Source: Hormiphora californensis
Taxonomy: Eukaryota > Animalia > Ctenophora
NCBI GenBank assembly: GCA_020137815.1
Contig: CM035355.1
Span: 8,308,001 to 8,372,000, forward strand
Direction of reading: 5' to 3'
Length of the DNA: 64,000 nucleotides
Of the stretch, positions 33,581 through 60,836 are shown one piece after another. Numbering within the stretch: the first letter of the stretch is position 1; each line of letters begins with the position of its first letter. The notes beneath the pieces are model-generated. The model was not told the DNA's origin. It worked only from the letters and a program-made list of their open reading frames with translations, and ran no database searches. Both the position numbers and the translations under genes were made by a program.

Positions 33581-34136
33581 TGTAACAACACTGCAGACCC
33601 TATAGTGGGATAGAGAGAGAGGTAATAAGTAGTAGGAGCTTGGTGGTGTTTTGGAGATGCAGGGCTCTCTAAACAATAAAATTCGGAAGGTTTAGTGATT
33701 TTAAAGAAGAAATTAATAAAACCTAAAGAATTCCAAGGATCAAGATTCTTTTCATTATGAAAAACAGATATCGGGGACACACTCGAATAATCAGCGCAAT
33801 ATAAAAACAACAGTCTCAAGACTCCGCAAGTCTCAATCTAAAAACGATATTTGCATATTTCAGTGATCTAAGAAAGGATTAGATCACCACACAGAACTTG
33901 TGGAGATATTAGCTTGACAAATACACAAAACTTGGAATGCTTTTGATGAGCTGCAACGGACTTATCGTATAGAGGAAGTAGCTGAGTTTTTGATAAGTTT
34001 TCGGGTCACGCAGCAGGTAGCAGATATATGGCATGTTTCTCTTGTTTCACCCATCTACCAAGGTACTGAGTACTGACTTTACCATTCCACCATCCTCATC
34101 AAAGCAATACCAAATGAACATCCAATACTCCTCCAA

Positions 34137-37004: not shown

Positions 37005-40000
37005 TCATCCCACCGCTTCCTCCAGGGGTCTCATCACACGGAAGAACATCTCTCGACCGATATCACCAAACTTCTGCTCGTAGTCATCAACACTGAGGAG
37101 AGGGAGGGGTTGTTAGAAGGGTATAGTCTGGGGGACCAGGGGGGAGCAAGGGATGTACCTGAGTACACCCCCTTGTTGTTGTTGGGGATAATCTGGGGGA
37201 GGGAGGGTTGTTGTTAGTAGGGGATAATCTGGGGGGAGGGAGGGGTAGTTGGGGGATGTTAATTGGGGGATAGGACCTCCAGTTAGAATGCATACCTGAG
37301 CAGGTCTGGCATGTGTTCTTGAACTACGTCGGCACACTTCTGTACCAGTAATGCCTTTATCTTCTCCTTAGCATGTCTGTCTATTGGGTCCTGGGATGTG
37401 GCACACTTCAACTCTACCCTCCTGTAGTACAAGGGGGGGGGGGGGGGGTCATTAGTTTACCTTGCCGACCCTCTTTTACAAAAGCAAGTTTGTTCAAGGA
37501 ATTGGCCGGATACCGAAATGGCGTTTCATGCACACATAAGTACCTGTATATGTTTCTAATTTCAGGTAGTACAATGGTGTTGATGGTCATGGGGCCCAGC
37601 TCACACAAACCAGCTGCAGGAATAGAGAGAGGGAGAGGGATTAGTGGAAGAGGATGCCATCATATCAACTGAAACTGCAAATTCCGAACTTTGACAAGAG
37701 GTATCATGAAATAAAGTTGCTACTTACCCAAGACACCGAATGAGGTGACTAGTCCACTATTCTGCTTATCAAGGGCATGATGTAACATCCTTATCACCCT
37801 ACTTTGTAGCTGGTTCGTACCCAGGGAGTGGGATCTGACCAGACCTGCTAATACACTTGCTGCTGTTCGCCTCACTGCCCAGTGGTCCTGTTCCAGAGGC
37901 CGGGCTGAAAGAGGGGTTGGGGTAGTGAACAAAGAGGGAGAGTTAATTTCAATATATAGAACCCTGGTCTTCCAACCATGGTCACTTACTATATATCTCA
38001 TCTAGTATAGACCCCCCCCCTTGTTCCGCCACCCAGTACTTACTACATATCTGAGCGCACACCATGCAGCTGATGACACTAGGAATCAAGTCATGAAGGA
38101 ACTTCTCCAATCTTATTGCCCTGTTTTGAAGGAGTTGTTCCAGCATACTCAATACGTATTGTATGTAGTACATCTTGCTCTCTCCCAGTCCTACCTGTGG
38201 GAGAGGGGGATCAGCTGTGGGGGTCAGTGGGGGTGGGACGAGAAGGGAGATAGCGGCTTGTGGGATAGAAACGAGTAGTGTAGACTTGTGTATCTACTAA
38301 ACTTTTAGTACATATCTATTGCAATTTGGCTAAGCTTACCCGAATCCCCTCTATCATAAAGACAGAAAGACGAGGTATAATAGCGGCAAGTCCTGTATCT
38401 GTGGACAGAGAGTTCACTGCTTCGTCTCTACTGTCACATCCTTAGATATACACTTTGAAGTGAGTTCCCTGAGATTTAGTTACCAGTTAGTAGAGAATTA
38501 CTTAGTAATCAGTTTGATAACTTTAAGCTGGCTATATCGACTTCTGGGAAGTTAGGGGAAACTCTAACTGAACCGCGCGTCATTAATGGGATGCCATCAA
38601 TTGCAAAAGTCTAACCAGTGATGAAGCACAATAATGGACACACAACGCGCGGATGAGACTATTCCTATGACCGCGCGCGTTACGTACACTACTGGTCTAG
38701 GTTTGCTGTCCAGTGTTTCCCGCGGAACGCTCTTTTACAAACTTAAAGAAGGGAAATTGCCCCGGCCGTGGTGTTCGAATTGCCCCGGCCTACATTCAAA
38801 CCAATTTAAAACCCAGGGAATCTCAAAACACAGTAGTTCACCAAGTTTGCAACACAAAGTTCATCATTTACACATTCACGCATCACAGAGATTCATAAAT
38901 ACGATCATGTCAAAAGTCAGGGACGGTCGATCACACAGACGAGACTCACACACGATGTTCAGTGGTGGGAGAGAGAGACGAACCCCGAGAGAGAAGAATC
39001 TCTCCTCTGCCTCTCTTCACTTCTGCTTAAATATCCCGTCAACAAAAAAGTCACGTGACAGAAACAACAGGGGTACTATCAAAGTTTGCGACACGCTCTC
39101 CAGACTAGAACTGTTAACACAGTCAGTATGGCGGCCTATTCAGATTCATAGATCTGGATAACTTTCCCTATGTCAATAACATTCACATGTCAATAAGCAC
39201 CAGGTCATATCTAGAACTACGGTAAGGAGACGGGGTAGACTTAGAGGTACGGGGAACATGGGTATCTCTCATATCCCACATTTGGAAAACATTATTTCCT
39301 TCATATAAAAATACTAAACAATTCATTCATTTGCCATCACAAATAGTAGTCTCTGGGTGAAAATGAGATCGCATCGGACAAGGTAGATCCGTTAACAAAC
39401 AAGTTGTGACATCCAATGCCTCTTCATTTGCTTTATCTCCGTCACTGTGGATACTGCAGGGATTTAAATGTAAGTTATCTGAATTATTTCGGTTTGATCA
39501 TAGCACTGGCAAGTGCCCCTGGCCCAAAAGGGGAGTTGTGGGGGCACCCGACACAGCCCCCACCTTATAAATACCCAAAACAAAAGAGATAAAGCGAGTG
39601 AGAGACACACAATAATCCACAATACTGAGATTTACCACTTCAAGACGAAAGACTTCCACACTAAATGGTGAAAACCTGCCATTGCTACTATTATTGGAAC
39701 AAGATCTTCTCTGGCTGTTATACTCACTATCTCTCTCACACATACACGCCCTACTGCAGTACAACAGTGGAGGGGAACATACAGCTACAGCGGGCAGATC
39801 ACGGTTGTGGAAGAATGGTTTGCACATTTCGGGGCCGGATTTTTGATGCTTTAAAAAGCATCTTCCAGATTCGAAATTCCTATCTCATCAGAAACGACCT
39901 TCTCAATCAGATAGAATTGTCAATATCGGAAGTTTGGTTGTGAAACATTAATGGTGGCATTGAAAACCAACTTCCCAATGAGCCACCTCCTAATGAGTCA

Positions 40001-43000
40001 TGTTTAAGGGGGATGGGGTGAGTTTGGTTTATATTCAGGTCGGGGGGGGGGGGGGGCTTGCCAGGCCCCGAACCTATTGTATGTAATAATAATAATTAAT
40101 GTACAGTGTACACCAAAAAGGATAGAAATTTAGTCCAAAAAGCAATTAAACAAATTAGTTTCGATGCCCGGGCCCATGTCGTGTCACTGGGTTCACATCT
40201 TTAATATCATAAATTATCGATATAGGGAGATATCAGGAGCACATTGTGCACAAGAAAGTGGGATGAAGTCTGAGATATCAAGAAAGACAGAGATAGAGAG
40301 CAAATAAGAAGAGGGAGAGAGAGGGAGAGGGAGAGTGAGGGGGAAAGAGAGAGAGACCGAGAGAGAGAGAAGAGAGAGAGAGAGATAGAGAGGGAGAGAG
40401 AAGAACGAAGAAAGAGAGAGAACAGAGAGAGACAGAGAGATAGAGAGAGAGATAGAGAGAGAGGAGATTAGTAGAGCTCAAATCTGCCAGCTCGATCGCT
40501 GCTCGTCGATCTCTTCTACTGACCCCACCCTAGATCCTGCTCTCCCTCTCTCGCTCCTCCCCCTCTCTCTCCGTAGCCTAAAGATATTACCCCTGTGACA
40601 CAACGTGGGCCCCACCGGGCATCCAAACATTTATTTAATTGGTTTTTGGAGTAAATTATAATTATTTTATTCCTTGGATTGGAAAATATATTCTCAAATC
40701 CACCCTTGAATACAAAGAATACTACTATCGATCAAATTTGTGACATGTAACTTACATATGATTTCCTTATTCGTTCTTGCTTATCCTCGCCCAATTTTTT
40801 GGCCTTTGCCATTGCTCTGCGCTTAGCGCCAAAATCCAATGGGTCTTCATCACTTTGATCAAGATCACTTTGATCATCCTGGTCACTTTCAGTCTCTCTA
40901 GAAATATCGTCATCAATCAGCAGGTTATGTAGCCTACAACATGCGGAGATGACTTGCACAGAAAAGTCAACTTCATAAAACGGCAGCTGTACATAAAGCA
41001 CCTTGAAACTGAAAAAGAATAAGTAGTATTAGAATATTGTACATAGCTACATATATCTTATAATATGGAAAGACTAATTTAGAGCAAAAACCAATTGAAA
41101 TTAGTTCGCCGGAAAGCTGGCCCATTTTGTTCTCACTCTTTCATTTGCGTCAGGCTTCAAAGACATTGAGGTATCCGTATATTTTTCCACCTTCAACTCA
41201 AAGGTGACGTAAATGAAGGATTAAGTTCAAACATGTGGTTCTCAAAATATGGGGAGGATGTGGTTGAGGTTTGGAGTTGGGGGGGTTTTGAGTTAAAAAC
41301 GGGGTGAGGGTTGGGTAAAACTATAATTTTATATCGATCACGGGAAGATACGTGTGAAATTTTTTATTTAGTTAGTTAGATTGTTTTGTTGCACCGTTTA
41401 GGTGGTGGGGGGGCTGGAAGGAAAATTGTTCGAAGCGGGGAAGCGGTTATTGTTCGGGATAAGTGTCTAGAGGCTGGGGGTGGGCCACCTTTCCATCGAC
41501 TAATGTCAATTAGTTTTTGTCTAAATTTGTACGATTTTTGTACTATTTTTAGCGTTAAAATGCAGTTGAGCTAGCTACTTCAAATTTTTACTGTCAGTAG
41601 AGCTCTATGTGAAGCTTCTTAGTACAGTCGGAACCCGATTTACCGGGATGCTCGGGGGAAAGGGTTTTGCCCGGTAAATCGGGTGCCGTATATCGGGGTC
41701 AAATACTATTAATTTCCTATATCGGGGGAAGATTATCCTCCGACTGTACCAAATTTCAGCCTCCTAGCTCATCTCGTTTCGGAGTTAGGAGGGGTCGAAA
41801 AGTGCCAAAATGGGCTAAAAATTGTTATATATACGCTGTCGGCAAGCGGGCCCACTTTTTCGGGAAAAGTTCAGAGGGAGGGGATGGGGCCACCTTTGCG
41901 CTTGCCAGCGCATTGATATGTTAGATATAGGTAGAATGTTAATTTCACCAATACCTGTTTTTCAGCTTCCCAAAACACCTTTCATTATGTCATCTCCGTC
42001 TTGGAGAGATTGTGTTGAAAGTTCTTTTCCCATCGCGAGGTTTAGGGTTGTGTTTGTACTGGGTCTGTAGCCATTCACAGGAGTGGGAAGGCAACTTGCT
42101 CCAGAATATGCCATCCCTTTGTAGATTTTTTTCAAGGTATGGCCCCAATCCACGGTTGTGTGAATACCCCACAGTCCCCAACATGCTCCCAGTCCACCAA
42201 CATGAGCAAAGGTCAGCTTCATGTCCGCTAGGCAATGCTGTAAAGATTTTTGTATTAATTTTATTATATATGTATCTTCTTGATATGTTCCTCTCTGTTC
42301 TCCCATTAATTGGTAAAAATGTCAATTTTTTAACGTTTGTTCTAAAAACACAATTTATTAACTCGTTTCCATTTGTCCCACGTGAACCACTTGTGCCCCA
42401 GAGAGGGTGAACCACTTTGCCCCAGTTTGACTAATTTGAAATTAAATAAACACTTTGGTGAGTTTTTTGAAAAAATTTTATACCAAGTTTTAGAAGGAAA
42501 AAACGTACCTTTTGTGATTAAATTAAACTGGCAGTTTTTGCAAATTAAAATCGGCCAACTCAAACAGAAATTACACAAGCGTTTTAAAAAAGCAAATTCG
42601 GAACAGAACGACCGGTCTCCGCTGGAGAAAGTCACGTGACTACACGTTAACTAGACCTTTTGCCCCTAACTGTGCCAACTTTGCCCCGTGGACCATTTTA
42701 CCCCAGTCTACCTACTACAGTCCGTTCAGATAAAATTTGAAATAAATAGAGAGGAAGGTTAATAATCTGTTATACCATTCCGCTTATGTCTAGTCTCGCT
42801 GTACGTACCTAAAATTACAGAGGTGAACCCTGTAACCACAGTTTTCTCTTTCCAGAGCTCTGACGGGAATGTGGGTCCCATCGATTGCTCCCACTGCTCC
42901 CTGAAAATATTGTAGTGTCGTTTAGTTTGTAATATAATCTCTATTATAATTTGGAGATGTCGCGTCGAAGTGGTCGTTTTGGGTAGCCGTTGTTTTGCTC

Positions 43001-46000
43001 TGTTGGTAGTTAGTGATCATTTCTGAACATAGTTTAGCAATTGATAGTTACCGATTCAGTTGCCATGGCACCCATTGATTGGTATCAAATTGGGAAAAAG
43101 GGCCACCCGGCGAAGCCGGGTTGTGTGTCAAACCCCTTACTTGAGCCCCACCCGCTGGGTGCGCTAGTTATATATATATATATATATATATAAATAATAT
43201 ACAATAAGTGTTTAATTGTGTGCGGTAGATCGATTAGTTACCTGAATTCCACCCATGGAGTTAAAGTCTTTAACAATCCCTCCTCTAGTTCTGCCTCCTT
43301 GAATTGCGGAAAGGTAGCATGGTTGTCAGCATGGCAATGCCTTCGTCAATCGCATACCTTGTTGATGTAATCGACACACCCCAAGACTCACAAGACACTT
43401 GTGGGCCCCCTTTGCTAATCCACCGCATACATATAGCCAGGCCCTTTCGTTTCGTTATTCCTTTTTTTAGTTAGTTGTCCTTGTGTAGGGCATGTGCTCT
43501 GCCATACGTCAAACAGACGGCGTGGCAACCCGGAATTTCGACTGAAATTTCTTTTCTGTCAAGTCCTGCTCGTATGTCCACCACGTTGCGGTCCGGGCGG
43601 GTTTGGCCCTTTTTTTAATTCAGGTGCCCTGTTGCTAGATGCCCAACTCAATGGCAGCTGCCAAATGTGTATTCGTGTCGATGTTGCTGTTTGGCAGGCT
43701 GCAGAGCCTTCACCTATAGCCTGATGATAAGAAATTCGTCCCCAGAATCAGATGACGATGAGCTCGACGAACTGTCAGAGAGGACATATCGATTTGTCAT
43801 GATAATGACACAATTAGCCGTATATTATGCACTATGGCTGCAGGACTCACAACCACACATCACCCCACACACATGATATTGATCAAGCCTGAACAACAGG
43901 TTTGAATCAAGTCGAACCGTTCAACGGTACGAGGTGCCATCACTGATTTCGTGCAGTTGATCCGAGGATCACGAATTCAATTAATATGTCGTGATTACTG
44001 TTTAATGCCCCACTGGTCATTCCGAAAATCAATACAAACACATTAATGGCTGCACGTATATGAGTTACTCCAACCCTCCAGTTTCAATTGCTTGTTTAAC
44101 GAAGGAAGTAACCAAGCGATCCACTGGATTCGATATATCTAGGCGCATATCATATGCCACAGTACTGATGATTAGCACTATCTTTTATCGGATATCTCGA
44201 ACAGCAACATCCTTGTTTTAAACAGGGTTTTGCTTTCTAAACCAGTTAGGCGTATTAAACAGGCACATGTTATCTGCACGGCTCACATATCATGATAATG
44301 AACTACATTACATTAGCCGTAGTATTATGCCTATGCTGCAGGGACATCACACACACACATCACCCACACACATGATATTGATCAAGCCTGAACAACATTT
44401 TATTGAACAATCGACCGTTCAACGGTACGAGGTGCCATCACTGATTTCGTGCAGTGGATCCGAGGATCACGAATTCAATTAATGGTCGTGATTACTGTTT
44501 AATAGCCCAACTGGTCATTCCGAAAAATCGATACAAACACATTAATGTGCTGCACTGTATATGAGTTACTCCAACCTCCAGTTTCAATGCTTGTTTAAAG
44601 CGAGAAGTAACCAAGCGATCCACTGGATTCGATATATCTAGGCGCATATCATATTGCCACAGTACTGATGTATTAGCACTATCTTTATTCGGATATCTCG
44701 AACCAGCAACAATCCTTGTATTTAAACAGGGTTCTTCTGCTTTCTAACCAGTTAGGCGTATTAAACAGGGCACATGTTATCTCAGCGCTCACATATCATG
44801 ATAATGAACTACATTAGCCTAGTATTATGCACTATGCTGCAGGGACATCACACACACACATCACCCACACACATGATATTGATCAACCTGAACAACAGTT
44901 ATTGAATCAATCGACCGTTCAACGGTACGAGGTGCTCACCTGATTTCGTTGCAGTTGATCCGAGGATCACGATTTCAATTATATGTCGTGATTACTGTTT
45001 AATAGCCCACGGTCATTCCGAAAAATCAGAACAAACACATAATGTGCTGCCACTGTATATGAGTTTACTCCAACCCTCCAGTTTCAATGCTTGTTTAACG
45101 AAGGAGTAACCAAGCGCATCCACTGTTTCGATATATCTATAGCGCATATCATATTGCCACAGTACTGAGTATTAGCACTATCTTGATATCGGAATATCTC
45201 AACAGCAACAATCCTTGTATTAAAACAGGGTTCTTGCTTTCTAACCAGTTAGGCTATTTAAACAGGGCACATGTTACTGCCAGCGCTCACATATCATGAT
45301 ATTGAACTACATAGCCGTAGTATTATGCACTATGCTGCAGGGACATCACACACACACATCACCCACACACATGATATTGATCAAGCCTGAACAACAGGTA
45401 TTGAATCACGACCGTTCCACGGTACGAGGTGCCATCACTGATTTCGTGCAGTTGATCCGAGGATCACGAATTCAATTATATGTCGTGATTACTGTTTAAT
45501 AGCCCAACTGGTCATTCCGAAAAATCAGATACAAACACATTAATGTGCTGCACTGTATATGAGTTACTCCAACCCTCCAGTTCTCATGCTTGTTAAACGA
45601 AGGAAGTAACCAAGCGATCCACTGTTCATATTCTAGGCGCATATCATATTGCCACAGTACTGATGTATAGCACATCTTTATATCGTATATCTCGAACAGC
45701 ACCAATCCTTGAATTTAAACAGGGTTCTTGCTTTCTAACCTTAGCGTATAACAGGGCACATGTTATCTGCAGCGCTCACATATCATGATAATGAACTACA
45801 TTAGCCTTAGTATTATGCACTATGCTGCAGGGACATCACAACACACACACTCACCCACACACATGATATTGATCAAGCCTGAACAACAGTTATTGAATCA
45901 ATCGACCGTTCAACGGTACGAGGGGCCATCACTGATTTCGTGCAGTTGATCCGAGGATCACGAATTCAATTAATATGTCGTGATTACTGTTTAATAGCCC

Positions 46001-49000
46001 AACTGGTCATTCCGAAAAATCAGATACAAACACATTAAGGTGCTGCACTGTATATGAGTTACTCCAACCCTCCAGTTTCAATGCTTGTTTAACGAAGGAA
46101 GTAACCAGCGATCCACTGGATTCGATAATCTAGGCGCATATCATATGCCACAGTACTGATGTTTAGCACTATCTTTATATCGGATATCTCGAACAGCAAC
46201 AATCCTTGTATTTAACAGGGTTCTGCTTTCTAAACAGTTAGGCTATTAAACAGGGCACATGTTATCTGCAACATCGCTCACATATCATGATATGAACTAC
46301 ATTAGCCGTAGTATTAGCACTATGCTGCGGGGACATCACAACACACACATCACCCACACACTGATATTGATCAAGCCTGAAACAGGTTATTGAATCAATC
46401 GACCGTTCAACGGTACGAGGTGCCATCACTGATTTCGTGCAGTTGATCCGAGATCACGAATTCAATTATTGTCGTGATTACTGTTATAGATAGCCCAACT
46501 GGTCATTCGAAAAATCAGATACAAACACATTATGTGCTGCACTGTATATAGTTACTCTCCAACCTCCAGTTTCAATGCTTGTTTAACGAAAGAGATACCA
46601 AGCGATCCACTGGTTCGATATTCTAGGCGCATATCATATTGCCACAGTACTGATGTATTAGCACTATCTTTATATCGGATATCTCGAACACAACAATCCT
46701 TGTATTTACAGGTTCTTGCTTTCTAACCAGTTAGGCTATAACAGGCACATTTTATCTGCAGCGCTCACATTCAGGATAATGAACTACATTAGCCGTAGTA
46801 TTATGCACTATCTGCTGGACATCACAACACACATCACCCACACACATGATATTATGATCAAGCCTGAACAACAGTTATTTGAATCATCGACCGTTCAACG
46901 GTACGAGGTGCCATCACTGATTTCGTGCAGTTGATCCGAGGAGGGTTGGAGTACTCATATACAGTGCAGCACATAATGTGTTTTGTATCTGATTTTTCGG
47001 AATGACCGTTGGGCTATTAAACAGTAATCAGACATATTAATTGAATTCGTGATCCTCGGATCAACTGCACGAAATCAGTGATGGCACCTCGTACCGTTGA
47101 ACGGTCGATTGATTCAATAACCTGTTGTGTTCAGGCTTGATCATATCATGTGTTGGTGATGTGTGTGTGTGATGTCCCGCCCATAGTCATAATACTACGG
47201 CTAATGTAGTTCATTATCATGATAGTGAGCGCTGCAGATAACAGTGTGCCCTGTTTAATACGCCTAACTGGTTAGAAAGCAAGAACCCTGTTTAAATACA
47301 AGGATTGTGTGCTGTTCGAGATATCCGATAAAAGATGTGCTAATACATCAGTACTGTGGCAATATGATATGCGCCTAGAATATCGATCCAGTGGATCGCT
47401 TGTTACTTCTCTTCCTGTTAACAAGATTGAAACTGGAGGGTTGGAGTACTCATATACAGTGGCCACATTAATGTGTTTGTATTCTGATTTTTCGGAAATG
47501 ACCAGTTGGGCTATTAAACAGTAATCACGACATATAATTGAATTCGTGATCCTCGATCAACTGCACGAAATCATGATGGCACCTCGTACCGTTGAACGGT
47601 CGATTGATTCAATAACCGTTGTTCAGGCTGATCAATATCATGTGTGTGGGTGATGTGTGTGTGTGATGTCCCTGCATCATAGTGCATAATAACTACGTCT
47701 AATGTAGTTCATTATCATGATATGTGAGCGCTGCATAACATGTGCCCTGTTTAATACGCCTAACTGGTTAGAAAGCAAGAACCCTGTTTAAATACAAGGA
47801 TTGTTGCTGTTCGAGATATCCGATATAAAGATAGTGCTAATACACCCAGTGGCAGGAAGATGATTGGTGCATCAGATACATCAATTTAGCAACCTCCAAG
47901 TGCATCTTTCCAGTTGTGGCCGAAGGCCCAATTTTGCAACCCAACGCGACGGCAGTGGGTCTGTGGGTCATTTTGGGGTATTTTTATTTCAGATATAGTC
48001 TTAAACAGTCATAAACGTGGTCTATGAACATATTTAGCCTATAGGAAACCTGAAATTTAAGAAAAATTCGATTTGAAAAAATGATGCACTGATGCACTTA
48101 GATAACGCGCCAAAATACTATGACCAAATTTGGCAAGTTTGGGGTATTTTTTATTTCAAGATATAGTCTTTCAACAGTCATACAACTGGTCTATGAACCA
48201 TATTTAGCCTGTAGGAAACCGTAAAATTTAAAGAAAAAACTCGATTTGAAAAAAAAGATGCACTGATCAGCTTATAGAACACGCAAAATACTCGAGTATT
48301 TTGCCGTATCTAAATGTACGGGGCATCTTTTGACAAAACACAACTTAAACCGATTTTGACAAAAAAGCTACCACTAGAAATGCCCCGGACTATTTTTAGA
48401 GCTTCTCTTGATATTTCCTAAAAATTTTGGTTGATCAGTCAACCTCGATGTTGCATCATGATGCAAGTCATTTCTTTCTTCTTTCTTCATCACAAGTGCA
48501 TCAGTATAAATACTCAATACTCATCTTTCTGCCACTGGGCTAATACATCAGTACTGTGGCAATGATATGCGCCTAATATATCGAATCCATTGGTCGCTTG
48601 GGTTACTTCCTTCGTTAAAACAAGCATTGAACTGGAGGGTTGGAGTACTCATATACAGTGCAGCACATTATGTGTTTGTATCTGATTTTTTCGGAATGAC
48701 CAGTTTTGGGCTATTACACAGTAATCACGACATATTAATTGAATTCGTGATCCTCGGATCAACTGCACGAAATCAGTGATGGCACCTCGTACCGTTGAAC
48801 GGTCGATTGATTCAATAACCTGTTGTTCAGGCTTGATCAATATCATGTGTGTGGTGATGTGTGTGTGTGATGTCCCTGCAGCATAGTGCATATACTACGT
48901 GCTAATGTAGTTCATTATCATGATATGGAGCGCTGCAGATAACATGTGCCCTGTTTAATACGCCTAACTGGTTAGAAAGCAAGAACCCTGTTAAATACAA

Positions 49001-52000
49001 GGATTGTTGCTGTTCGAGATATCCGAATAAAGATAGTGCTAATACATCAGTACTGTGGCAATATGATATGCGCCTAGATATATCGAATCCGTGGATCGGC
49101 TGGTTACTTCCTTCGTTAAACAAGCATTGAAACTGGGGGTTTGGAGTAACTCATATACAGTGCAGCAATTAATGTGTTTGTATCTGATTTTTCGGAATGA
49201 GACCATTGGGCTATTAAACAGTAATCACGACTATTATTGAATTCGTGATCCTCGATCAACTGCCTAAATCAGTGATGGCAACCTCGTACCGTTGAACGTG
49301 TCGATTGGATTCAATACCTGTTGTTCAGGCTTGATCAATATCATGTGTGTGGGTGATGTTGTGTGTGTGTCCCTGCAGCATAGTGCATAATACTACGGCT
49401 ACTGTAGTTCATTATCATGATATGTGAGGCGCTGCAGATAACATGTGCCCTGTTTAATACGCCTAACTGGTTAGAAAGCAAGAACCCTGTTTAAATAACA
49501 AGGATTGTTGCTGTTGTCGAGATATCCGATATAAAGATAGTGCTAATACTCATACTGTGGCAATATGATATGCGCCTGCTAATCGAATCCATTGGATCGC
49601 GTTGTTACTTCCTTCGTTAAACAAGCATTGAAACTGGAGGGTTGGAGTAACTCATATACAGTGCAGCACATTAATGTTTTGTATCTGATTTTTCGGAATG
49701 ACCAGTTGGGCTATTAAACAGTAACTCACGACATATTAATTGAATTCGTGATCCTCGGAATCAACTGCAGAATCACGTGATGGCACCTCGGGACCTGTGA
49801 ACGGTCGATTGATTCATAACCTGTTGTTTCACTTGAGCAATACATGTGTGGGAGGTGATAATATGTTTTGAGTCATGGGCTTGATGTGTGTGTGATGTCC
49901 CTCAGCATAGTGCATATACTACGCTAATGTAGTTGCATTATCATGATATTAGCGCTGCAGATACTGTGCCCTGTTTAATACGCCTACTGTTAGAAGCAGA
50001 ACCCTTTTAAATACAAGGATTGTTGCTTCAGATATCCGATATAAATAGTGCTAATCCCAGTACTGTGCAATCTAATCGCCTGAGTATAATCGAATCCATG
50101 GATCGCTTGGTTACTTCCTTTCGTTAACGCATTTAACGGAGTGATACTCAAACGTGCAACTTAAGTACTGATTTTACGATGACCAGTTGGGCTAGAACAG
50201 TATCACGCATATGATCGTGTCGATCAACTGCAACAGTGTGGCACCTACCGTGAACGGTGATTGATTCACTTTGTCAGCTGATATCTGTGTGTGGGGATGT
50301 GGTTGATTCCTGTCATGTGCTATCACTACGGTAGAGTCATTCAGATTGAGCGCTCAGTCTGTGCCTGTCCTAACTGTAAAGCAAGCCTGTTATACATTTC
50401 TAATCGATCTAAAGTAGTCTAATACATCAGTCGAATTATACGTAGATTTCGATCGTGATGTTGGTTATTCGTACAGCATTACTGGAGGGAATAACTATAT
50501 ACAGTGCAGCACATTAATGGTTTGTATCTGATTTTTCGCGAGACCAGTTGGGCTATTAAACGTAACACGCTATTATTGAATTCGTGCTCCTCGGATCACT
50601 GCACGAAATCAGTGATGGCACTCGTACCGTTGACGGTCGATGATTCAATAACCGTGGTTCAGGCTTGATCAATATCATGTGTGTGGGGTGATGTGTGTGT
50701 GTGTTGTCCCTGCAGCATAGTGTCAATACTCACGGCTATGTAGTCTTATCATTATATTGTGAGCGCTGCAGATAACATGTGCCCTGTTTAATACCCGTAA
50801 CTGTTAGAAAGCAAGAACCCTGTTTAAATACAAGGATTGTTGCTGTTCGAATATCCGATATAAAGATAGTGCTAATACATCAGTACTGTGGCAATAGGAA
50901 TATGCGCCTAGATATATCGAATCCATGGATCGCTTGTTTACTTCCTTCGTTAAACAAGCATTGAAACTGGAGGGTTGGAGTAACTCATATACAGCGTCCA
51001 CACTTAATGTGTTGGATCTGATTTTCGGAATGACCAGTTGGGCTATAAAACAGTAATCACGACATATTAATTGAATTCGTGATCCTCGGATCAACTGCAC
51101 GAAATCAGTGATGGCACCTCGTACCGTTGAACGGTCGATTGATTCAATAACCTGTTGTTCAGGCTTGATCAATATCATGTGTGTGGTGATGTGTGTGTGT
51201 GATGTCCCTGCAGCATAGTGCATAATACTACGGCTATTATTTCATACCATGATAGTGAGCGCTGCAGATAACATGTGCCCTGTTTAATACGCCTAACTGG
51301 TTAGAAAGCAAGAACCCTGTTTAAATCAAAGGATTGTTGCTGTTCGAGATATCCGATATAAGATAGTGCTAATACACAGTACTGTGGCAATATGATATGC
51401 GCCTAGATATATCGAATCCATTGGATCGCTTGGTTACTTCCTTCGTTAACAAGCATTGAAACTGGAGGGTTTGGAGTAACTCATATACAGTGCAGCACAT
51501 ATGTGTTTGTATCTGATTTTTCGGAATGACCAGTTGGGCTATTAAACAGTAATCACACATATTAATATTGATTTTGCTTAGAAACTATAAGAATGTCAAG
51601 TGAATTGTGTACCAAAGAAATTGTACGGTCAAAATTAACGTCCCTAAAAAGAGAGTTATGCTGAGTAGTTCTACTCGATCAGTAATTTTTTGGAACTTCC
51701 TAACCCAAAGTCAAAGGGCCATAAACATATTTAGAGCGAAAAAAAAACTGAATAAAGTGATGAAATTTTTCTGGTTTGGATTTCTCTCTGAATCGATCGC
51801 GCGCTTGCTCGCGCCGGCGCACCGTTTGTAAATCTTCGCGTTATTTTTTATAGCACTGTGATCGGATTTTGTTGTTTCAAGAATTTTAAAAAATTTTTCG
51901 CGGTGAATGAGTTTTTGAAAACGAAAAGCTTCTGCAAACCATTCCAGATGTTATCCTTCACCCATCTGCAAACACTGCTCCTTAGATAGCAAACAACACT

Positions 52001-55000
52001 AAATTTAGCGCGAAAGCTGAGATCTCAACCGCGAAAAACTATTTTTGACTGAGAAATCATTTGCATCGTGTTTTCATTTTGAAAAGCTTTGCCTTATCCC
52101 GCGCTAATCGGGGGCCAGCAACGTTTGCCAAGGTTTCATTTGTCCATACGAGTCAACTTCACGGTTTAAATTACTTTTAGATGAATTTGGACAGCTTTGA
52201 AATTGACTAAGTATGGATAGTGAACACTCGAGGCTCGAGCTGTACCAGGAAAGAATTAGCCTACTGTGTTTTGAAATTTTGACTTTTGTTTCCGCTCATC
52301 TTATACCATCAAGTTTCCAATCCTGTATCCTTTATAGGTGAATGCCACGTCAACTAACTTCCGACCAATACACCGGGGTATCGTTCGAGTCGATACCCCT
52401 CGCAGACACACAATCTGATGCCAATGTGTGGCCAATGGAGAAACATTGAAAAAAGAGACAGATTAGTAAAATCAGCACAAAAAACATACCTTGGTCGTTC
52501 CAGTCCACTGCATCCCTACTCGTCCACGACGAGGAAGAAGAAAACTCTAACGTCAGTGGATCTTCTAGGAGGGAAAAAGGAAAATCATAACAAGGGCGAA
52601 AACCTCAGATCCTGTTAAACACTCCACCCCACCTCATCTAATCACCCAAACGTGTTAAGCTTCAGCTTAAGTCCTATAGCTAGTGGATCTACGGACAAAG
52701 CAACTAAAAAAAAGGCTCTAAAAAGATCTCAGGAGCCTCACATCAACAGAATTGACCAGTTACAGCATGTTTATAAATTCAGTTGAGGCACTTTCAGTAA
52801 ATCTTGGCAGTTTCTAAAGACACTGGCAGCGGTTAAAACAGAACTACCAGTAAAAAAAATGAACCACTAAAGGAGTGAACTTGTTCCTAAAGAACACAGA
52901 GGTCGGCGGTAGCAGTTACGAATCGCTTTCAGAAGAGGATCAGCAAACTACAGCACACCATCAACATCAAGCGGAAAGGTTCGGAAAAGCCCTAGGGGTT
53001 GTAAAACCGCACCTTTAAAGCGGCTGCGTTGGCCAGTCTTAGCACCCCGTCTTCCCCAGTGGGGTGAAATCCATGTTAAAGAGGCAGCCGTAGTAAACCT
53101 TCAAAAATTCCTGTCCGAAAAGTTTCAAAACGACCATAATTTAGACAATGTAAGAGCCCTTGAATATCCGGCAGAAACAAGGACGAAGGGCCGTTGCATC
53201 TGGCCCATCTAGTGGACAGGTTGGCCGGTTTAAGGCATCTGTCGTGGACAACCTAAGGGCCTTAAGAAGCCACACCCTTCACCAGGTTTAAACTCCAAAA
53301 AGCTGTTAAATTTTTCAACCCGAACTCACCCCAGTTGTTTGCAGTTGAACAGAAGAGAGGCAACGACTGGAGTGTAGCTGAAACGAGCGAGTTTTTGGGC
53401 CTCCTTTATCACCCTATGATACAGAACGTGATAAATGACACACCGTCTGCCGAAGGAAAAACGAAAGTATTGGAGTATCTCTCAAGGCAGATTGAACACC
53501 ACAGTTCGGAGTCCAGAGATCCATTGCAGCATTACGTGCAAACATGCCGAACTCCTGAAAACATTCAAGCAAGTATTTTCGCCATTCATCAGGAGCGAGT
53601 TCAGATGAATTGAATCGCATCCGAGAAGTATTCCCGTTTATTTCGATCTTATGAAAAACATTGTCCCATTGGTGTGAATCTAGAACCGAACATCCAGGAT
53701 TCCCGTAACAAAAAGAAAGAGGCTGTTCCACTTCCTAGGGTCAAGACCGTGCTAAACTAAGGTTGAGAACATACAAAACTGTGTCACAAGGGGAACAACT
53801 GGTGCGGATTAGCATTCAAATGGCTGAAATTGAAGCAGAAAAAGGATGATAGATGAACGATTTGTCGACTAGCGGCGAATCGAGAAAGGCGGAAACAAAG
53901 AATGGGAAGGAGGCGAGACGAGAAAGGAGGGACCGGGCTTTAGTTTACAACAGGTGAGAATTATAAAGGTATGAGAAAATGTGAATGTAAACGAGTGCAT
54001 ATAATGGAACTACATTTTTTATACAATGTATATCCTCAGGTCTGAAATTGTTTTTAACTTGTTTTGAAATGCGACAGATGAAATACTTTAATCCAACGTA
54101 ATAACTCACTGAAATTGTTCCATTCACATTTCACAAAATGCCTTTATCATCATCTTTAGACCCCCTGCTGCCCCCTTGTCCTGAGTTGTCCACTGGTACC
54201 TGTCACATGACCCCCTTTTTGTGAATCACCAAGAACCTCACTCATGATTGATGAATTTCAATCTCTTTTTAAAATGTACAAGGTGGCCCAGAAAGTTGGA
54301 TCCACTTAGAGATAACTAATGTGTCAATACATTTGCTCTACGATGTACACGAGATGTACAGAGATGTACTAGAAAAAGTGTCCCCTGAGGATTGAGATCC
54401 TAACAAATTATCACTAAGTGGCTCCACTTTCTGGCCACCCTGTAATTATCTCGTCACTACACCCACTAAAATGCACACATATATTATTTCTTATACATGG
54501 AGGATAGGAATTAATATAACGGTAATCACTAAAATGTGGAACTATAATAGCTCCGGCCCCGTTCGAGATACAGCTCTGGTGAACTACTATACATACTTTG
54601 GTGTAGCAAAAGAGATGCTACAATTATAATACAGTCGGACCCCGATTTAGGGACACCCTCGGGGGAAAGGCTCTTGTCCACTAAATCGGGGTTCCACTAA
54701 TCGGGGTCAAATAGGGTTAATTTCCTATATCGGGGGAAAAAAACCTGTCCCTAAATCGGGGTGCCACTAAATCGGGGGCCCCTGAATCGGGGTCCGACTG
54801 TATACCGATGAAAATGAACTTGTTACTCTATATAGCTATATTCCCTATTCAAAATTGATTGAAAAGTCGTTCAATTACTGTCCCAAAGCTGTCTCTCAAA
54901 CAAGGTCGGCGGTGCAGCTCACAGATAAATTCCAGATTTGTGGTCATCACCCGTTAGTACTATATTTATTTCCATATCAAATTTAGATAAAGATTCCACT

Positions 55001-55095
55001 AAATTAGACTTTTATTAAGAGTGTAGCACTAGAGACCTCACACCGCTATAAAGCTCCAAACACAACCTAATCCCTACCTACCCATCCCCCCCCCC

Positions 55096-55151
<56 letters not shown>

Positions 55152-57783
55152 GTAGGTATTTGGTTATTATTGAGTCACGGTTATTTTACACTGAAACAGT
55201 TTATCAAGAACGGTGTTCCTGTCTCAAAATCGAGGTAGGAGACTCAAGCTGGCTCACTTTTGTTTATTGGACAGATAGTGTGCGTTTTTAACCTTCAGTA
55301 GTCGTGCGACATGGATAGAAACACTCCTTTAGACTTGAGGTAACCCCTCCCTCCCCTTCAGGTTATAATAAGCTGATTGAATGGACTGTATTTGTGATGC
55401 AGTGGGTTAACGATATAAGATCCTAGCAGTTATCTAGCATTCTAGGTGGTGTTGGACCCATGCACTCATTTATTCAGGTTAGTTAAAATCTAAGTCATTC
55501 CGGAATTAGATCGGGCATAACTTTGGCAGGTGAGAAGAAGCCCGACCGGTTAAGGGACCCTTTAAGGGACCCTTTTAGGGACCCTTAAGGAACCTAGAAA
55601 GTTAAGGGACCCTTTAAGGGACCCTAGGAAGTTAAGGGACCCTTTAATGAGGTAGAACGAATCGTGAGCAGTACCCTCGTATCAGTTCACATTGTAAGCG
55701 GTTCCGTCGCGTCGCTAATGAGGTACACCGAATCGTGAGCACTGAGCAGTGAGCAGTACCGTGTATCGGTTTACATCTCTGTCTCTCCCTCTGTCTCTGT
55801 CTCCCCCTCTGTGTCTGACTCTGTCCCTCTCTATGGCTCTCCCTCTGTCTCTGTCTCCCCCTCTGTCTCTGTCTCTGTCTTTGTCTCTGTCTCTGTCTCT
55901 GTCGCTCCCTCTGTCTCTGTCTCCCCCTCTGTCTCTGTCCCTCTCTCTGTCTCTGTCTCAGTCTCTGTATCTCTCTCTCCCTCTGTCTCTGCCTCTTTCG
56001 CTCGCTTTCTCTCTTACAATGTGAACTGATACGAGGGTACTGCTCACGATTCGTTCTACCTCATTAAAGGGTCCCTTAACTTCCTAAGGTCCCTTAAAGG
56101 GTCCCTTAACTTTCTAGGGTCCCTTAAAGGGTCCCTTAACCGGTCAGGCTTCTTCTCACCTGCCATAACTTTTATCAGATACATTCTAACCCCACCCTCA
56201 TCATCTCAGTTATTCTCTAGCGTGGTAGACCTAGTTTACCTGCCAGTCCAGCTGTACACCTACACTCTACAGAGGGGTGCTAACAGTTTCACTCTCTTAC
56301 AACTTACCACTAAACTCTTCGCCAGTATTCAGGTTTGGTGATGCTTGATTATCAAACATTGATAAACTTTGATAAATGTATGATTGATGTCTTTTCAAAA
56401 ACCCTTAATCCTTAATTCATAGGTATTTTCAAAATTTCAGTCCCCCTAACTCCCCCTAATTCCCCTCCCCTCACAGTGACTCACTGTAACAACCCATCAT
56501 CTCTCACAGAGCGTTACCGAGGTGAAATATGACCTGGCATCACCCGCCCAAATCAGAAGGGACTCCCTCAAACACCACGCAGACATGAGATAGGGACTGG
56601 TTTACCAGGTCAGAACCCCATATTTCAACACGAATTTTCAGTTCGTATCTCATATATAATAATCAATAAACCCGGGTTATATGTAGCGGGTCACCTGCAA
56701 GGGTGATTCGCTACACCAGGCACCCCACAGAAGAAGATGAATGGTGATTCGCTACACCATATACTGTCCTACCTGCGAAGGAGCTCAGGGAGGGTGGTAT
56801 ATGGTATAAAACCCGACCAAAGGGAGGGTTTATACTTTCTATAAGCAAGGATTTATTGATTATAAGTTTTAGCGGCAGAGACATTTATGCTTTTTATAGC
56901 GGCTGGGAGAGGGGGATGGTCATCTTTACACTTGCCACTGGGGTTTTTAATTTAAATAACTGACCCCCATCTCCCCTCTCGCTAGGTATATCGTGGAAAA
57001 TTTAAACGATAAAAGAATTTCGTGACCAAACCTAAATCAAACATTGGCTAGTGGCTACATATTGACTCAGGTTTGTGTGGTCCTTCATTGTACAAGTCAT
57101 ATTGGATAACTAGTAACTCTTTTCTTTTATCACTCTCCCCTTTGCAGATAACCAAAAGATGAAGTTGTTCGCCCATACCACGAATTTCGTGACCGAACCT
57201 AAATCAAACATTCGCTACTTATTGACTCAGGTTTGTGTGGTCCTTTATTGTACAAGTCATATTGGATAACTAGTAACTCTTTTGTTTTATCACTCTCCCC
57301 TTTGCAGATAACCGAAAGATGAAGTTGTTGGCCCATACCACGAATTTCTGTGTAACCATCCTACCTGAAAATGTAATCATCCCCCTGAAAATGTATCTAT
57401 CTAATTATTTAATCGAAAGAAACCATCACAGACTTTCTCTCAGAGTGAGTTATATTTTGTCGCAGTCAGATTGACTACTATTATTACTCCAACAAACACA
57501 CTTTTATAACCAAACAAATCACCTTTGTTTTATCTTGTTTTTGTTTGAAATTTGACATTGGTTTGAATGTATCATGTCCTGCAATTTAGCGGTTGTCGCT
57601 CCCTAGTGTACACTGTACCGGGTACCCCCTCCTCTCTTCCTCTCTCTCTCCCTCTCTCTTTCTCTCTCTCTCTCTCTCCTCATCTCTCTCTCTTTCTCCC
57701 TCTCATCTCTCTCCCTCTCTCTCTCTCTCCTCTCTCTCTCTCCTCTCTCATCTCGTCTCTCTCTATCTCTCTCCTATCTCTCT

Positions 57784-57823
<40 letters not shown>

Positions 57824-59655
57824 CTCTCTCCTCATTTCTCTTCTCCTCTCTCTATACTCTTATCGTCTCTCTCTCTCGTATCTCTCTCGTTCTTGTCATC
57901 ATCTCTGTGACGCTTGTCAGAGCGCTACAAGAGGAACCGAGGAACTTGCATCTCCACAGTTTGGTGGCAACTTTGTCGCAAATTTTGCTAGGATACTCCA
58001 TAACGTAACGCGCGCGGTCATAGGAATAGTCTCATCCGCGCGTTGTGTGTCCATTATTGTGCTTCATCACTGGTTAGACTTTTGCAATTGATGGCATCCC
58101 ATTAATGACGCGCGGTTCAGTTAGAGTTTCCCCTTACTACAGATACCTAAATCACAAATCTTCGCCTGGGAAGTTACTTCTAAAAACTATTACAAAACTG
58201 CTCAGGGGTGGGACTACTCACTTGAAGTAGAGTTGTTGTTCTCTGGATATTTCGTGGGCACTGACCCCATTCACTGCGTCCACATCTCCAATGAAATAGT
58301 TGGGGCATCTAAAAAGTGAAATAAAGTATACTGAAACCCGCTATGTTGCCAGTGTTGTCAGTAAATAGCAACACAATGAATATTCAATCTACTGGATAAT
58401 ATATGAGAACAATAATATATGAGAACAATAAACAATACAAACATCCACTACCCTACCTAGTATACAACTGTACAAGTATTCACTACCTCTACACTATTAC
58501 AAGACACATGTACTACCTAGTATAAGTTGATTCTCCTCCAGTGCAGGATTATCAGGTATGGCAGGCATTTGACCCTCAATAGTTAGCCAGTGAATCTTGA
58601 CTTGTACATCCAGGGGTACCTGCAGCAACATGAAATTAGATCTTAGAATCCTTATTGTTGTTGGCATGTACACAAACTGTGTACAATGTACATTCAGTCC
58701 GTTATGCACGCTGTGTCTGAGGGAGCTATGTATTCCCGCGCGTCCGACCCCGAATTAGACACCGCGCGCTACAGACACTTCACTGGAAAGTGTGTCACAG
58801 AGTCAGGGCCACATGGACCCAGATGTTCCAGAGAATGGTCTTCCTCATTCCTGCACGTGCAAGATGCCGCGCGTTTCATTTCCGTTCTCTTGTCCTTGTG
58901 TGGTTGTTACCTTTGGAGGGGGAGCATTAATGAGAGCGTCTAGATCAAGCTCTTCATCCTTTGGGGCGTATATCTCTCTTCCCCTGCTGGACACCATCGC
59001 ATACCTGAGTGGGGGGAGAGTAAACCATCATATTCTTAAATCCGGGTGTGGGAGAGTACCGGGGTGGGATCTACTGCTGTAGATGGGGGAAGCTAGATAG
59101 TATTGGGACCGGGTTTCAACTTGTGTAGCTCATACTGCACTATGAGGTCGGCAGGGCAACTATAAACTCACTTTCTTGGTTTCTGTATGGTCGACACGTA
59201 AAGTGGTATGGGCCTCTTGCTAGCTCTCTCCAGGTGTTCTTGTCTTAGCTCAGTAGAGTTTGACATCAACTTGAATTTTAGGGCATCTCGTACCAATGTT
59301 CGACACTGAAATGCACAGGGCTAGCTAAAAGGGGTTGAGAATGGTGTGCGAAAAGGGTGGGAAATGTGAGATTCAAATTGTTCTGGAAATGGTAAACAGA
59401 GAATTATTGGACAAGAGAGAAAGGTGGGTTGAGGTACCTGATCCTAAAATGAGACAACACAATTTACCTGGAGAACACGTCATGATTACCTGGAGAAGGC
59501 ATGCCAGGGGGAAGCTATCATAACTTTACCTGTAGAAGTGCCTGTGTAGCCAGATAGTTGGTACAATCAGGTTTCAAGTCCCGTATACCAATACTCTCTG
59601 CTATACACTTGATACTCTCAGCACTGAGCTCGTTCTCACACTCCCCATCAGCCAT
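37005..59655 (-). CDS. TAF6: TFIID subunit 6, ~11 exons, with a 19.75-kb intron (38469-58221)
   Basis: ESIKCIAESIGI (histone fold), [123 protein letters not shown]; stop ~37005. One or two phase problems suggest sequence errors or a missed micro-exon. Confidence 0.93.
38555..38685 (+). repeat. Left terminal inverted repeat (131 bp)
   Basis: Exact reverse complement of 58003-58133 by manual comparison. Confidence 0.95.
40732..43800 (-). pseudogene. Degenerate, intron-containing Harbinger (HARBI1/DDE_Tnp_4-like) transposase
   Basis: MTNRYVLSDSSSSSSSDSGDEF (ATG 43800); WWTYEQDLTEKKFQSKFRV; KGLAICMRWISKG; IVKDFNSMGGIQ|GAVGAIDGTHIPVRA (exon 42809-42900, first catalytic Asp); C-terminal exon VQVISACCRLHNLL (40732-~41009). 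Exons for the second Asp and the Glu were not found. Confidence 0.85.
41625..41746. mobile_element. Tc1/mariner-type MITE (short relative of 54632-54800)
   Basis: TA-CAGTCGGA...TCCGACTG-TA; shared internal aatttcctatatcggggg. Confidence 0.7.
43798..51570. repeat. ~500-bp satellite array, ~6 copies forward then ~8 copies inverted (switch at ~46940)
   Basis: Unit contains catgataatgaactacattagccgtag...accgttcaacggtacgaggtgcc...ttctaaccagttaggcg; copies differ mainly by scattered indels; no persistent ORF. Confidence 0.92.
47845..48539. mobile_element. Non-autonomous TIR element with 8-bp TSD inserted into a satellite unit
   Basis: TIR CCCAGTGGCAG(G/A)AAGATGA at both ends; TSD CTAATACA at 47837-47844 and 48540-48547; the satellite unit resumes in register. 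Confidence 0.85.
53335..53940 (+). pseudogene. Myb/SANT-like DNA-binding protein remnant (Harbinger second ORF)
   Basis: NDWSVAETSEFLGLLY...KVLEYLSRQI...CRTPENIQ resembles the W-x3-ET-x2-L helix of Myb/SANT-like trihelix domains; followed by a frameshifted charged tail (ERKAETKNGKEARRERRDRAL); divergent to the transposase. Confidence 0.6.
54279..54442. mobile_element. Tc1/mariner-type MITE
   Basis: TA-CAAGGTGGCCCAGAAAGT...ACTTTCTGGCCACCCTG-TA, imperfect ~35-bp TIRs. Confidence 0.7.
54632..54800. mobile_element. Tc1/mariner-type MITE
   Basis: TA-CAGTCGGACCCCGATT...AATCGGGGTCCGACTG-TA. Confidence 0.85.
55156..56608 (+). pseudogene. ATG2: Four-exon fragment of an ATG2 gene (C-terminal region) with in-frame stops, inside the Harbinger element
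   Basis: Exons 55156-55234, 55362-55477 (QWVNDIRS*QLSSILGGVGPMHSFIQ), 56210-56332 (LFSSVVDLVYLPVQLY..LQRGANSF..LQLTTKLFASIQ), 56510-56608 (SVTEVKYDLASP...ADMR*GL), all with AG/GT ends; matches the ATG2 motif EWLNDI..QLPGILGGVGPMHSLVQL..DL.WLP...QRGA.SF. Confidence 0.82.
55525..56164. mobile_element. MITE with GG termini, long TIRs and 8-bp TSD (Merlin-like) in an intron of the ATG2 fragment
   Basis: GGCAGGTGAGAAGAAGCC...GGCTTCTTCTCACCTGCC; TSD ATAACTTT at 55517-55524 and 56165-56172; subterminal AAGGGACCC repeats. Confidence 0.82.
57016..57347 (+). repeat. Tandem duplication of a ~165-bp exon-intron-like unit
   Basis: Two copies of gaatttcgtgacc...attgactcag|gtttgt...ctcccctttgcag|ataacc...ccataccac. 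Confidence 0.8.
58003..58133 (-). repeat. Right terminal inverted repeat (131 bp)
   Basis: Reverse complement of 38555-38685, followed by TTA. Confidence 0.95.
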
Positions 59656-60080: not shown

Positions 60081-60302
60081 GCAATCTATAGATTCTTTAG
60101 TTATACACCTTAGCAACTTGTAGCTCTGGTAGCTGACAACAGGTGTGTGCGTGTGTGTAATAGAGAGAGGGAGAGATCAGGGAAAGGGGTGTCACTTAGT
60201 GCGTGGACATTGTGTAGTTTGAGTTGAGTTGACTGGACATTATTAATTTAGTGTCTATTACTATTACTATTAGTGTCTAAAGTTAACTACTATTGTAGTT
60301 AA

Positions 60303-60753
60303 AGGTTGACAAGATACCTAAAACTTTTCGTATATCGTCTTATTTTGATTTATCATTAATTTTCAGCATTTTTTCAGAATTTTTTGTCGGCTAGAAATAT
60401 GTGCAAAATAGGGGGTCTACTGACAAATGAGTGTGCCTTTTTTTAAAATTGATAACGTAATATCTCCGGTTCCTGATGAGATACAGAAACCGTTTTGGTA
60501 GCGTTGGAAAGGTCTTATTGAGACCAATCCAACGCAACCAAGATCAAGTCTTTATCTTTTGAGGAACCGGAAACGTGAATTTCAATTTGCGAGACGCAGT
60601 GAGTGTGCCCAGTAAAACCAGTGCTGACAATATCGGTAGACCCCCTATTTCGAATTTTTTTCTAGCCGACAAAAAATTCTGAAAAAATGCTGAAAATTAA
60701 TGATAAATCAAAATAAGACGATATACGAAAAGTTTTAGGTATCTTGTCAACCT
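60303..60753. mobile_element. Kolobok-like MITE
   Basis: TTAA-AGGTTGACAAGATACC...GGTATCTTGTCAACCT-TTAA; ~95-bp near-perfect TIRs; purine-purine 5' terminus with TTAA TSD. Confidence 0.85.
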
Positions 60754-60836
60754 TTAACTTTAGTTGATAGTGTTGATTAATTAGTTAAACAGTTACTACA
60801 GTGTGATAACCTATTACCAATACACCCGATAGTATA

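Follow-up and report, generated by a model that had tools for sequence, protein, structure and literature searches.

A heterozygous, 19.6-kb cargo-bearing PIF/Harbinger element in a TAF6 intron of the ctenophore Hormiphora californensis

Results

An intron of the TAF6 gene of Hormiphora californensis carries a real, young and unusually large cargo-bearing PIF/Harbinger element, which measures 19,579 bp (19.6 kb) between and including its terminal inverted repeats (TIRs); Pack-type Harbingers as such were already known. The element was analysed in a window of 64,000 nucleotides, by which we mean the whole stretch of DNA studied (Table 1). In the reading that we prefer, to which we assign a probability of about 0.5, the element would have entered TAF6 by a recent cut-and-paste event that brought most of its cargo along, using its own transposase or that of a sister copy, with the cargo situated outside the exons and with frameshifts that are mostly read errors.

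Ends of the element and the host gene

Sequence comparison recovered two identical TIRs and the target site duplication (TSD) that flanks them. The TWA target of PIF/Harbinger elements occurs as TTA at both sides here and as TTA/TAA at a second site described below. Together with homology of the transposase to DDE_Tnp_4, these ends agree with the assignment to Harbinger and with the identical 131-bp TIRs and TTA TSD that had been proposed in a sequence-only reading of the same DNA. A search of the window identified no third, internal copy of the TIR between the two ends, and the TIR pattern had 0 matches when searched in metagenome_contigs. Each TIR contains three CGCGCG-core motifs, which are possible Myb-binding sites.

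TAF6 is encoded on the minus strand, and was identified by Pfam matches to TAF (E 6.5e-6) and TAF6_C (E 1.5e-9 and 3.9e-10). Splice motifs place the host intron at 38469-58221, and subtraction of the element and one TSD (19,753 - 19,579 - 3) gives an empty intron of 171 bp, the same insertion and the same length as previously proposed. We considered whether TAF6 might be a pseudogene and ruled this out: TAF6 is intact, because the frameshifts in both exons that border the host intron (at 38428 and 58284) are missing bases that the contigs carry.

The TAF6 intron adjoining the host intron has three further CGCGCG motifs (at 58737, 58763 and 58868), and 9 of the 13 such motifs in the window are in the TIRs or in this adjoining intron. 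The motifs at 58737-58868 could be left over from a related element, or could tether a Myb-like protein.

Table 1. Features of the element and of the adjoining TAF6 exons, in window coordinates.
Feature	Position	Strand	Remarks
TAF6 exon downstream of host intron	38340..38468	-	base missing at 38428, supplied by all covering contigs
Left TSD, TTA	38552..38554		single TTA in empty allele
Left TIR, 131 bp	38555..38685	+	identical to right TIR
Left arm	38686..40056		contains parts of high-copy repeats; contigs 38656-38840 and 39253-39815 match with 0 differences at ~3.5-4x the depth of one haplotype
Nested MITE A	40128..40655		imperfect arms of ~75-90 bp, (GA)n core
Transposase exon 4	40735..41008	-	without frameshift or stop; 55-66% identity to relatives
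Nested MITE B	41073..41530		imperfect arms; in transposase intron 3
Nested MITE C	41625..41746		TA flanks; in transposase intron 3
Transposase exon 3	41955..42237	-	free of stops and with 6 single-base frameshifts when aligned to P0025
Transposase exon 2, first catalytic Asp motif	42809..42900	-	one frameshift, ~10 bases missing
Transposase exon 1, from ATG	43242..43800	-	3 frameshifts and 1 stop in aligned part
506-bp array, ~6.3 forward units	43787..46942	+	starts at transposase start codon
506-bp array, inverted block of ~8 units	46940..51574	-	breakpoints fit in-place inversion with ~10 bp lost
Nested element D, hAT-like	47845..48539		8-bp TSD CTAATACA; inside one array unit
Candidate Myb/SANT-like partner gene	52339..53960	+	by eye; head-to-head with transposase, heavily frameshifted; trihelix-like core ~53370-53690
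Nested MITE E	54279..54442		TA flanks
Nested MITE F	54632..54800		TA flanks; same family as MITE C
Captured genomic ATG2 fragment	55153..56608	+	exon at ~55361-55479 confirmed by search, the remainder inferred; introns of GT-AG type; TAG stops in frame
Nested element G, hAT-like	55525..56164		8-bp TSD ATAACTTT; in ATG2 intron
160-bp tandem duplication	57015..57348		sequence repeat
(CT)n tract	57632..57909		window letters differ from all four runs compared; assembly error
Right TIR	58003..58133	-	junction contig 58105-58190 with 0 differences
Right TSD, TTA	58134..58136		flanks right TIR
TAF6 exon upstream of host intron	58222..58308	-	base missing at 58284, supplied by contigs

Short-read contigs and copies of the element

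The flanks, TIRs and arms (57895-58560, and the left arm to 40056) were compared with seven short-read runs, all in the form of contigs, four of them from sample S1 and two, with part of the flank, from sample S2. Run X7 contributed 0 contigs, which has no bearing on expression or splicing. S1 is perhaps the sample from which the window itself was assembled, in which case the S1 junction contigs are not independent evidence.

In the S1 runs X1 and X3, the right junction was crossed by a contig (depth 23.9 and 40.1, respectively), and the left junction was present as a loose contig end. The same two runs also contained an empty allele in which the left flank was joined to 58134 through one TTA. 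As both junctions and the empty allele occur in the same sample, the S1 animal is heterozygous; the TAF6 insertion is heterozygous and young, which bears out the recent insertion suggested earlier. The stretch 58285-58353, overlapping the 5' end of an exon, is one across which the other S1 TAF6 haplotype does not align.

The TAF6 contig of the S2 run X5 ended at 58134 with no depth-adding junction contig beside it among the pieces compared, and S2 is likely to be without the element at TAF6. In X6, also from S2, the loose contig ends at 58134 and 58137 are consistent with a single additional TTA site for the TIR, located inside a short (~32-bp) tandem repeat, so that the ends of the element, as distinct from its interior, were found at another location. 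A loose end at 58141 in X3 represents one more flank behind the TIR, in that single run, and is either a further site or an artefact.

Inward of the TIR, the contigs continued as the left arm or the right arm only, and no short derivative element with the same TIRs was seen in them. In single contigs of X1/X3, depth rose from about 20/38 for one haplotype to 36/81 (right arm), 74/135 (left arm) and 129/257 (TIR). Depth is not equal to copy number, and these values translate only roughly into arm counts of ~2 (right) and 3.5-4 (left) and a TIR count of 6 in S1. Since the TIR depth is ~6 times that of one haplotype and the choice of arm is just left or right, any master element with the same TIRs is, on this rough count, among ~3 elements. 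The greater depth of the left arm (~3.5-4x) than of the right arm (~2x) in S1 means that some copies are truncated or differently built.

Both the left arm to 40056 and the right 123 bp were multi-copy and identical among contigs. The left arm was free of differences over 542-563 bp in S1 and, in S2, over stretches of 314 and 174 bp, and the identity extended across the borders of nested high-copy repeats. The two TAF6 haplotypes, unlike the arms, differ at many sites; because the arm copies are identical, the arm would appear to have spread more recently than the TAF6 alleles diverged. At 38870-39083 the letters of the window are in none of the contigs compared, the covering contig (depth 172, X1) differing by 7 letters and 11 gap letters, which may be due to a paralogue, filter loss or assembly error.

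A full-length transposase gene

Inside the element, on the minus strand, is a full-length Harbinger transposase gene of four exons. A profile of 22 Harbinger transposases aligned from position 56 to near the end through all four exons, with a score of 297 compared with 30-37 in three shuffles, and the exons are joined by three GT-AG introns whose six canonical splice sites are intact. A library-wide protein search gave 63 matches, 3 of which were on the last exon of the transposase, two of these being DDE_Tnp_4 proteins. The homologue P0025, itself assigned to PF13359 (DDE_Tnp_4, E 4.6e-26), aligned with 78 of 130 residues identical (60%), its six single-base frameshifts all falling in exon 3. 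The closest relative of the transposase was from Pleurobrachia bachei. Pfam searches of 122 interior ORFs produced none above the curated cut-off (5 weak matches), and 75 Harbinger loci (27-48% identity) had no DNA in common with either the element or its array unit. The protein P0007, from another genome, reads 41078-41125 and 41759-41916 as one joined piece with their order reversed, which would fit a tandem or circular arrangement of the related element in that genome.

The profile path has ten lesions, with three frameshifts and one stop in exon 1, one frameshift in exon 2, three frameshifts and two stops in exon 3, and none in exon 4, a skew away from exon 4 with a p of about 0.03-0.04. 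The two stops in exon 3 vanish when the closer homologue P0025 is used; the absence of stops from this exon has a P of 0.15-0.62 under decay, and hence is compatible with decay. Of the DDE triad, the first Asp and Glu can be read, and the second Asp, in exon 3, cannot. Nested insertions within the transposase gene are in introns only (p about 0.01-0.06 for three independent events, a rough value that assumes an original intron size).

The candidate partner gene

The second gene of the element is a probable Myb-like partner, judged by eye from a helix that begins with Trp, an aromatic motif further along and, after it, a charged tail. These features are typical of trihelix partners. The divergent Myb/SANT-like ORF of the sequence-only reading did not gain support from Pfam, PDB, homologue, profile or fold searches of the region 52.3-54.0 kb. 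The best match of a Myb-like profile (53422-53669) scored 34.8 against a null mean of 33.3, and with two purpose-built Myb profiles (of 2 and 8 sequences) and a codon-usage test the region was not separable from noise. A homologue search with the ORF returned 46 candidates, none of which scored, and a PDB search gave no meaningful match. The predicted model was helical (pLDDT 65), and a fold search with it found no match (best Z 5.8).

The 506-bp array and the quality of the central region

An array of about 14 units of 506 bp with an internal inversion (43787-51574) is positioned between the two element genes, and the ATG2 fragment lies beyond the second gene. The 7.8-kb satellite noted earlier is therefore present, and it starts at the ATG of the transposase. 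Because the unit abuts that ATG, contains no open frame longer than 51 codons and is found nowhere else in the 64-kb window, the array is likely to be the element's own DNA from upstream of the transposase, amplified in tandem, rather than a captured host satellite. Unit position ~172 marks the end of the forward block, and ~178 the start of the far end of the inverted block, as expected for an inversion in place. Read fold-back was considered as the source of the inversion and ruled out, as the breakpoints are asymmetric.

Comparison of 13 array units with their consensus showed 251 deletions and 105 insertions (356 indels, 287 of them single-base) and 69 substitutions (59 transversions). Most variants were singletons (293 of 343), and local density ranged from 2 to 16 events per 100 bp. 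An indel-dominated, singleton-rich error profile is that of raw long reads. The direct repeat of element D had 13 single-base gaps in 158 columns and the arms of element E two homopolymer slips in 44 columns, compared with 0 gaps in 161 columns for the arms of element G. Based on these comparisons, we consider the central ~12 kb (~41.9-54.3 kb) to be at raw long-read quality. Outside the element, a 59-bp array had 137 mismatches and 17 gaps and the G-rich 39-bp array at 5843-11066 had 140 mismatches and 110 gaps; indel noise is thus not specific to the element.

The noisy zone covers transposase exons 1-3, with all ten aligned lesions, and the Myb-like gene, and leaves exon 4 and the ATG2 exons, none with a frameshift, outside. 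Most frameshifts in the centre would then be assembly read errors rather than decay, and the damage to the transposase likely owes much to sequencing error, so that the element may still be able to mobilise itself. Some observations point toward real decay, specifically the loss of ~10 bases of a conserved exon 2 motif, the stop in exon 1 and the unreadable second Asp, and a single true frameshift would kill the copy in the TAF6 intron.

These data bear on three statements of the sequence-only reading. The decayed interior that it described is, from the array indels and the contrast between the repeats of elements D and G, largely long-read error; its dead transposase has lesions only where the letters are of raw-read quality; and its non-autonomous element mobilised in trans sits poorly with the intact exon 4 and splice sites and with nested insertions placed in introns. 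Death of the element and its movement in trans are thus not established, and autonomy of the family has about the same likelihood.

Nested elements and captured ATG2 DNA

At least 7 nested TIR elements (A-G) were mapped, 5 with clear TSDs, consistent with the at least five nested MITEs counted previously. The TA-flank pattern of MITE C is presumably Tc1/mariner-like. About 59 of the 63 matches in the library search were to the family of MITE C and were spurious ORFs from other genomes, including Pleurobrachia; a MITE-derived protein among the matches comes from Pleurobrachia bachei.

Host-gene fragments had been reported in the plural, and ATG2 is the sole gene that we identified. The exon at ~55361-55479 matched Pfam ATG2_CAD (E 7.9e-6, below the whole-protein cut-off) and residues 1729-1758 of human ATG2A (E 0.002), and ATG2_CAD was the sole credible match when 24 read-through frames were searched with Pfam. 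The exon at ~56210-56331 was coding-like in the codon-usage test (z 4.0), and we take the GT-AG-bounded pieces within 55153-56608 to be the continuation of ATG2. The element probably holds several ATG2 exons in all, one of them confirmed. A PDB search with the second ATG2 exon gave no meaningful match, and a homologue search with the ATG2 exon for a candidate parental gene was blank. Since the introns were kept, capture at the DNA level would be expected. The ATG2 exons have stops and no frameshift, and the in-frame TAG stops suggest that this cargo, in a region free of the central noise, is truly decayed.

A stretch of 29 residues on the minus strand at 54139-54225 was coding-like (z 3.5) and is perhaps a second captured exon. 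It was dropped as an identified exon, its PDB matches being at the level of chance (E 0.097 or worse).

Discussion

Our preferred reading involves a series of steps. ATG2 genomic DNA would have been copied into the element by template switching or gap repair, and ~500 bp in front of the transposase gene would have been amplified in tandem to form the array. Cargo would have accumulated outside the exons of the two element genes as those genes stayed under selection; the position of the insertions in introns, of the array between the genes and of ATG2 beyond them points to selection on working genes. The element then would have inserted recently at a TTA on one chromosome copy, likely with most of its cargo moving along, mobilised by a transposase and Myb-like partner that came from the copy now in the TAF6 intron or from a sister copy with the same arms. 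TAF6 would survive through splicing-out of the element, and the other allele is empty. We infer that the whole 19.6 kb moved as one unit. We hold only tentatively the more ambitious version, an autonomous, active Harbinger that moves ~15 kb of passenger DNA (ATG2, seven MITEs and an amplified promoter array) in one cut-and-paste step and whose middle has been garbled by long-read assembly.

In the main alternative, both element genes, transposase and Myb-like, have really lost their function, and the 19.6-kb composite owes its movement to another Harbinger that acted in trans, recognising the same ends. This is less likely in our estimation than the preferred reading. In its favour are ten lesions in the profile alignment, including the ~10-base loss and a stop; no Pfam match above the cut-off among the 122 interior ORFs; real stops in the ATG2 cargo, from which the composite is not new; and trans mobilisation of partial Harbingers as described in C. 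inopinata (PMC13668399). The confinement of the lesions to the raw-quality zone, the clean exon 4, intact splice sites and exclusively intronic insertions argue against it, as do the small number of TIR copies and the lack of short derivatives among the contigs.

An improbable reading, in our view, is that a shorter element of ~12 kb or less inserted and that the array grew and inverted later on site, or that its length and inversion are assembly artefacts. The true array units are probably near-identical, and hence very young, the centre resembles one or a few unpolished reads, and neither the TIR nor the array can be spanned by short-read contigs; against this, the inversion breakpoints (~172 and ~178) are coherent, and element D, with its own TSD inside one unit, indicates a structured array. 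We regard it as very improbable that the TIRs come from separate elements or that the arms were joined by misassembly. The arm depths in S1 are unequal and no single record spans the element, yet TTA matches on both sides and is single in the empty allele, there is no internal TIR, and the transposase and partner candidate are head-to-head between the TIRs. That the TIRs might belong to two separate short elements is also unlikely from the contigs, in which only a left or a right arm runs inward.

Autonomous PIF/Harbinger elements are usually a few kb in length. Autonomous elements have two genes, a DDE transposase and a Myb/SANT-like partner, and a 3-bp TWA TSD (PMC9179366, PMC13668399); their Myb-like partners are strongly divergent (PMC9179366). 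The element described here is similar in having a 3-bp TWA TSD, TIRs, a DDE_Tnp_4 transposase and a probable second gene. It differs in its length of 19.6 kb, in TIRs of 131 bp compared with the usual 25-50 bp (PMC9179366) and in about 15 kb of non-core DNA; a Harbinger family of C. inopinata ranges from 180 to 2,752 bp (PMC13668399).

Among 370 animal Pack-TIRs, Tan et al. listed 21 PIF-Harbinger cases, of about 0.35-1.1 kb, from frogs and an alligator; the median captured size of animal Pack-TIRs was 224 bp and only 4 cases were multicopy (PMC8277862). The TAF6 element resembles these in carrying host genomic DNA between TIRs, and the multicopy cases move with their cargo (PMC8277862). It differs from the animal Pack-Harbingers in having a full-length transposase gene, in being ~18 times longer and in being polymorphic, and the unusual size noted in the sequence-only reading is evident from 19,579 bp against the lengths listed. 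Plant Pack-PIFs, of the same superfamily and likewise capturing gene fragments, are defined as non-autonomous, and the worked example in maize averages 402-535 bp (PMC8903248).

Elements of similar size are on record elsewhere: in Chondrus crispus, En/Spm (CACTA) elements reach 16-20 kb, enlarged by extra ORFs (reviewed in PMC6431247). Those are also cut-and-paste TIR elements, but of another superfamily and without enlargement by decayed cargo or an array. In the Tetris foldback element of Drosophila virilis, tandem repeats grow to kb-size arrays (PMC4079207); these repeats are in the TIRs of a non-autonomous element, whereas the 506-bp unit is between two element genes. Natural cut-and-paste elements are considered limited to small cargoes: efficiency falls above about 6 kb, and Pack-MULEs are under 7 kb (PMC6431247). 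The literature searched, which had Repbase and most subscription papers outside its range, yielded neither a Harbinger that was giant or cargo-laden nor any Harbinger of ctenophore origin.

A segregating 19.6-kb Harbinger implies that the superfamily is able to carry far more than small cargoes, and that it can bring fragments of genes, as well as tandem arrays, into the intron of a core transcription gene. Should the transposase prove intact, the element would represent an active transposon native to a ctenophore and with a high cargo load. The central region is also a reminder that, in long-read assemblies, an unpolished centre alone can give a heterozygous insertion the look of an old and dead one.

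Other features of the window

An intronless ORF of 882 aa on the minus strand (31043-33691), with no Pfam match, is located beside an intronless thiolase. In addition to the array at 5843-11066 (39-bp units), further multi-kb tandem arrays occupy 19544-23928 (~27-bp G-rich units, which look heavily garbled) and 24259-30464 (59-bp units). A MITE-like inverted repeat at 60297-60759 has 127-bp arms that are 95% complementary, and ORFs for RNMT and Med27 are on the other side of TAF6.
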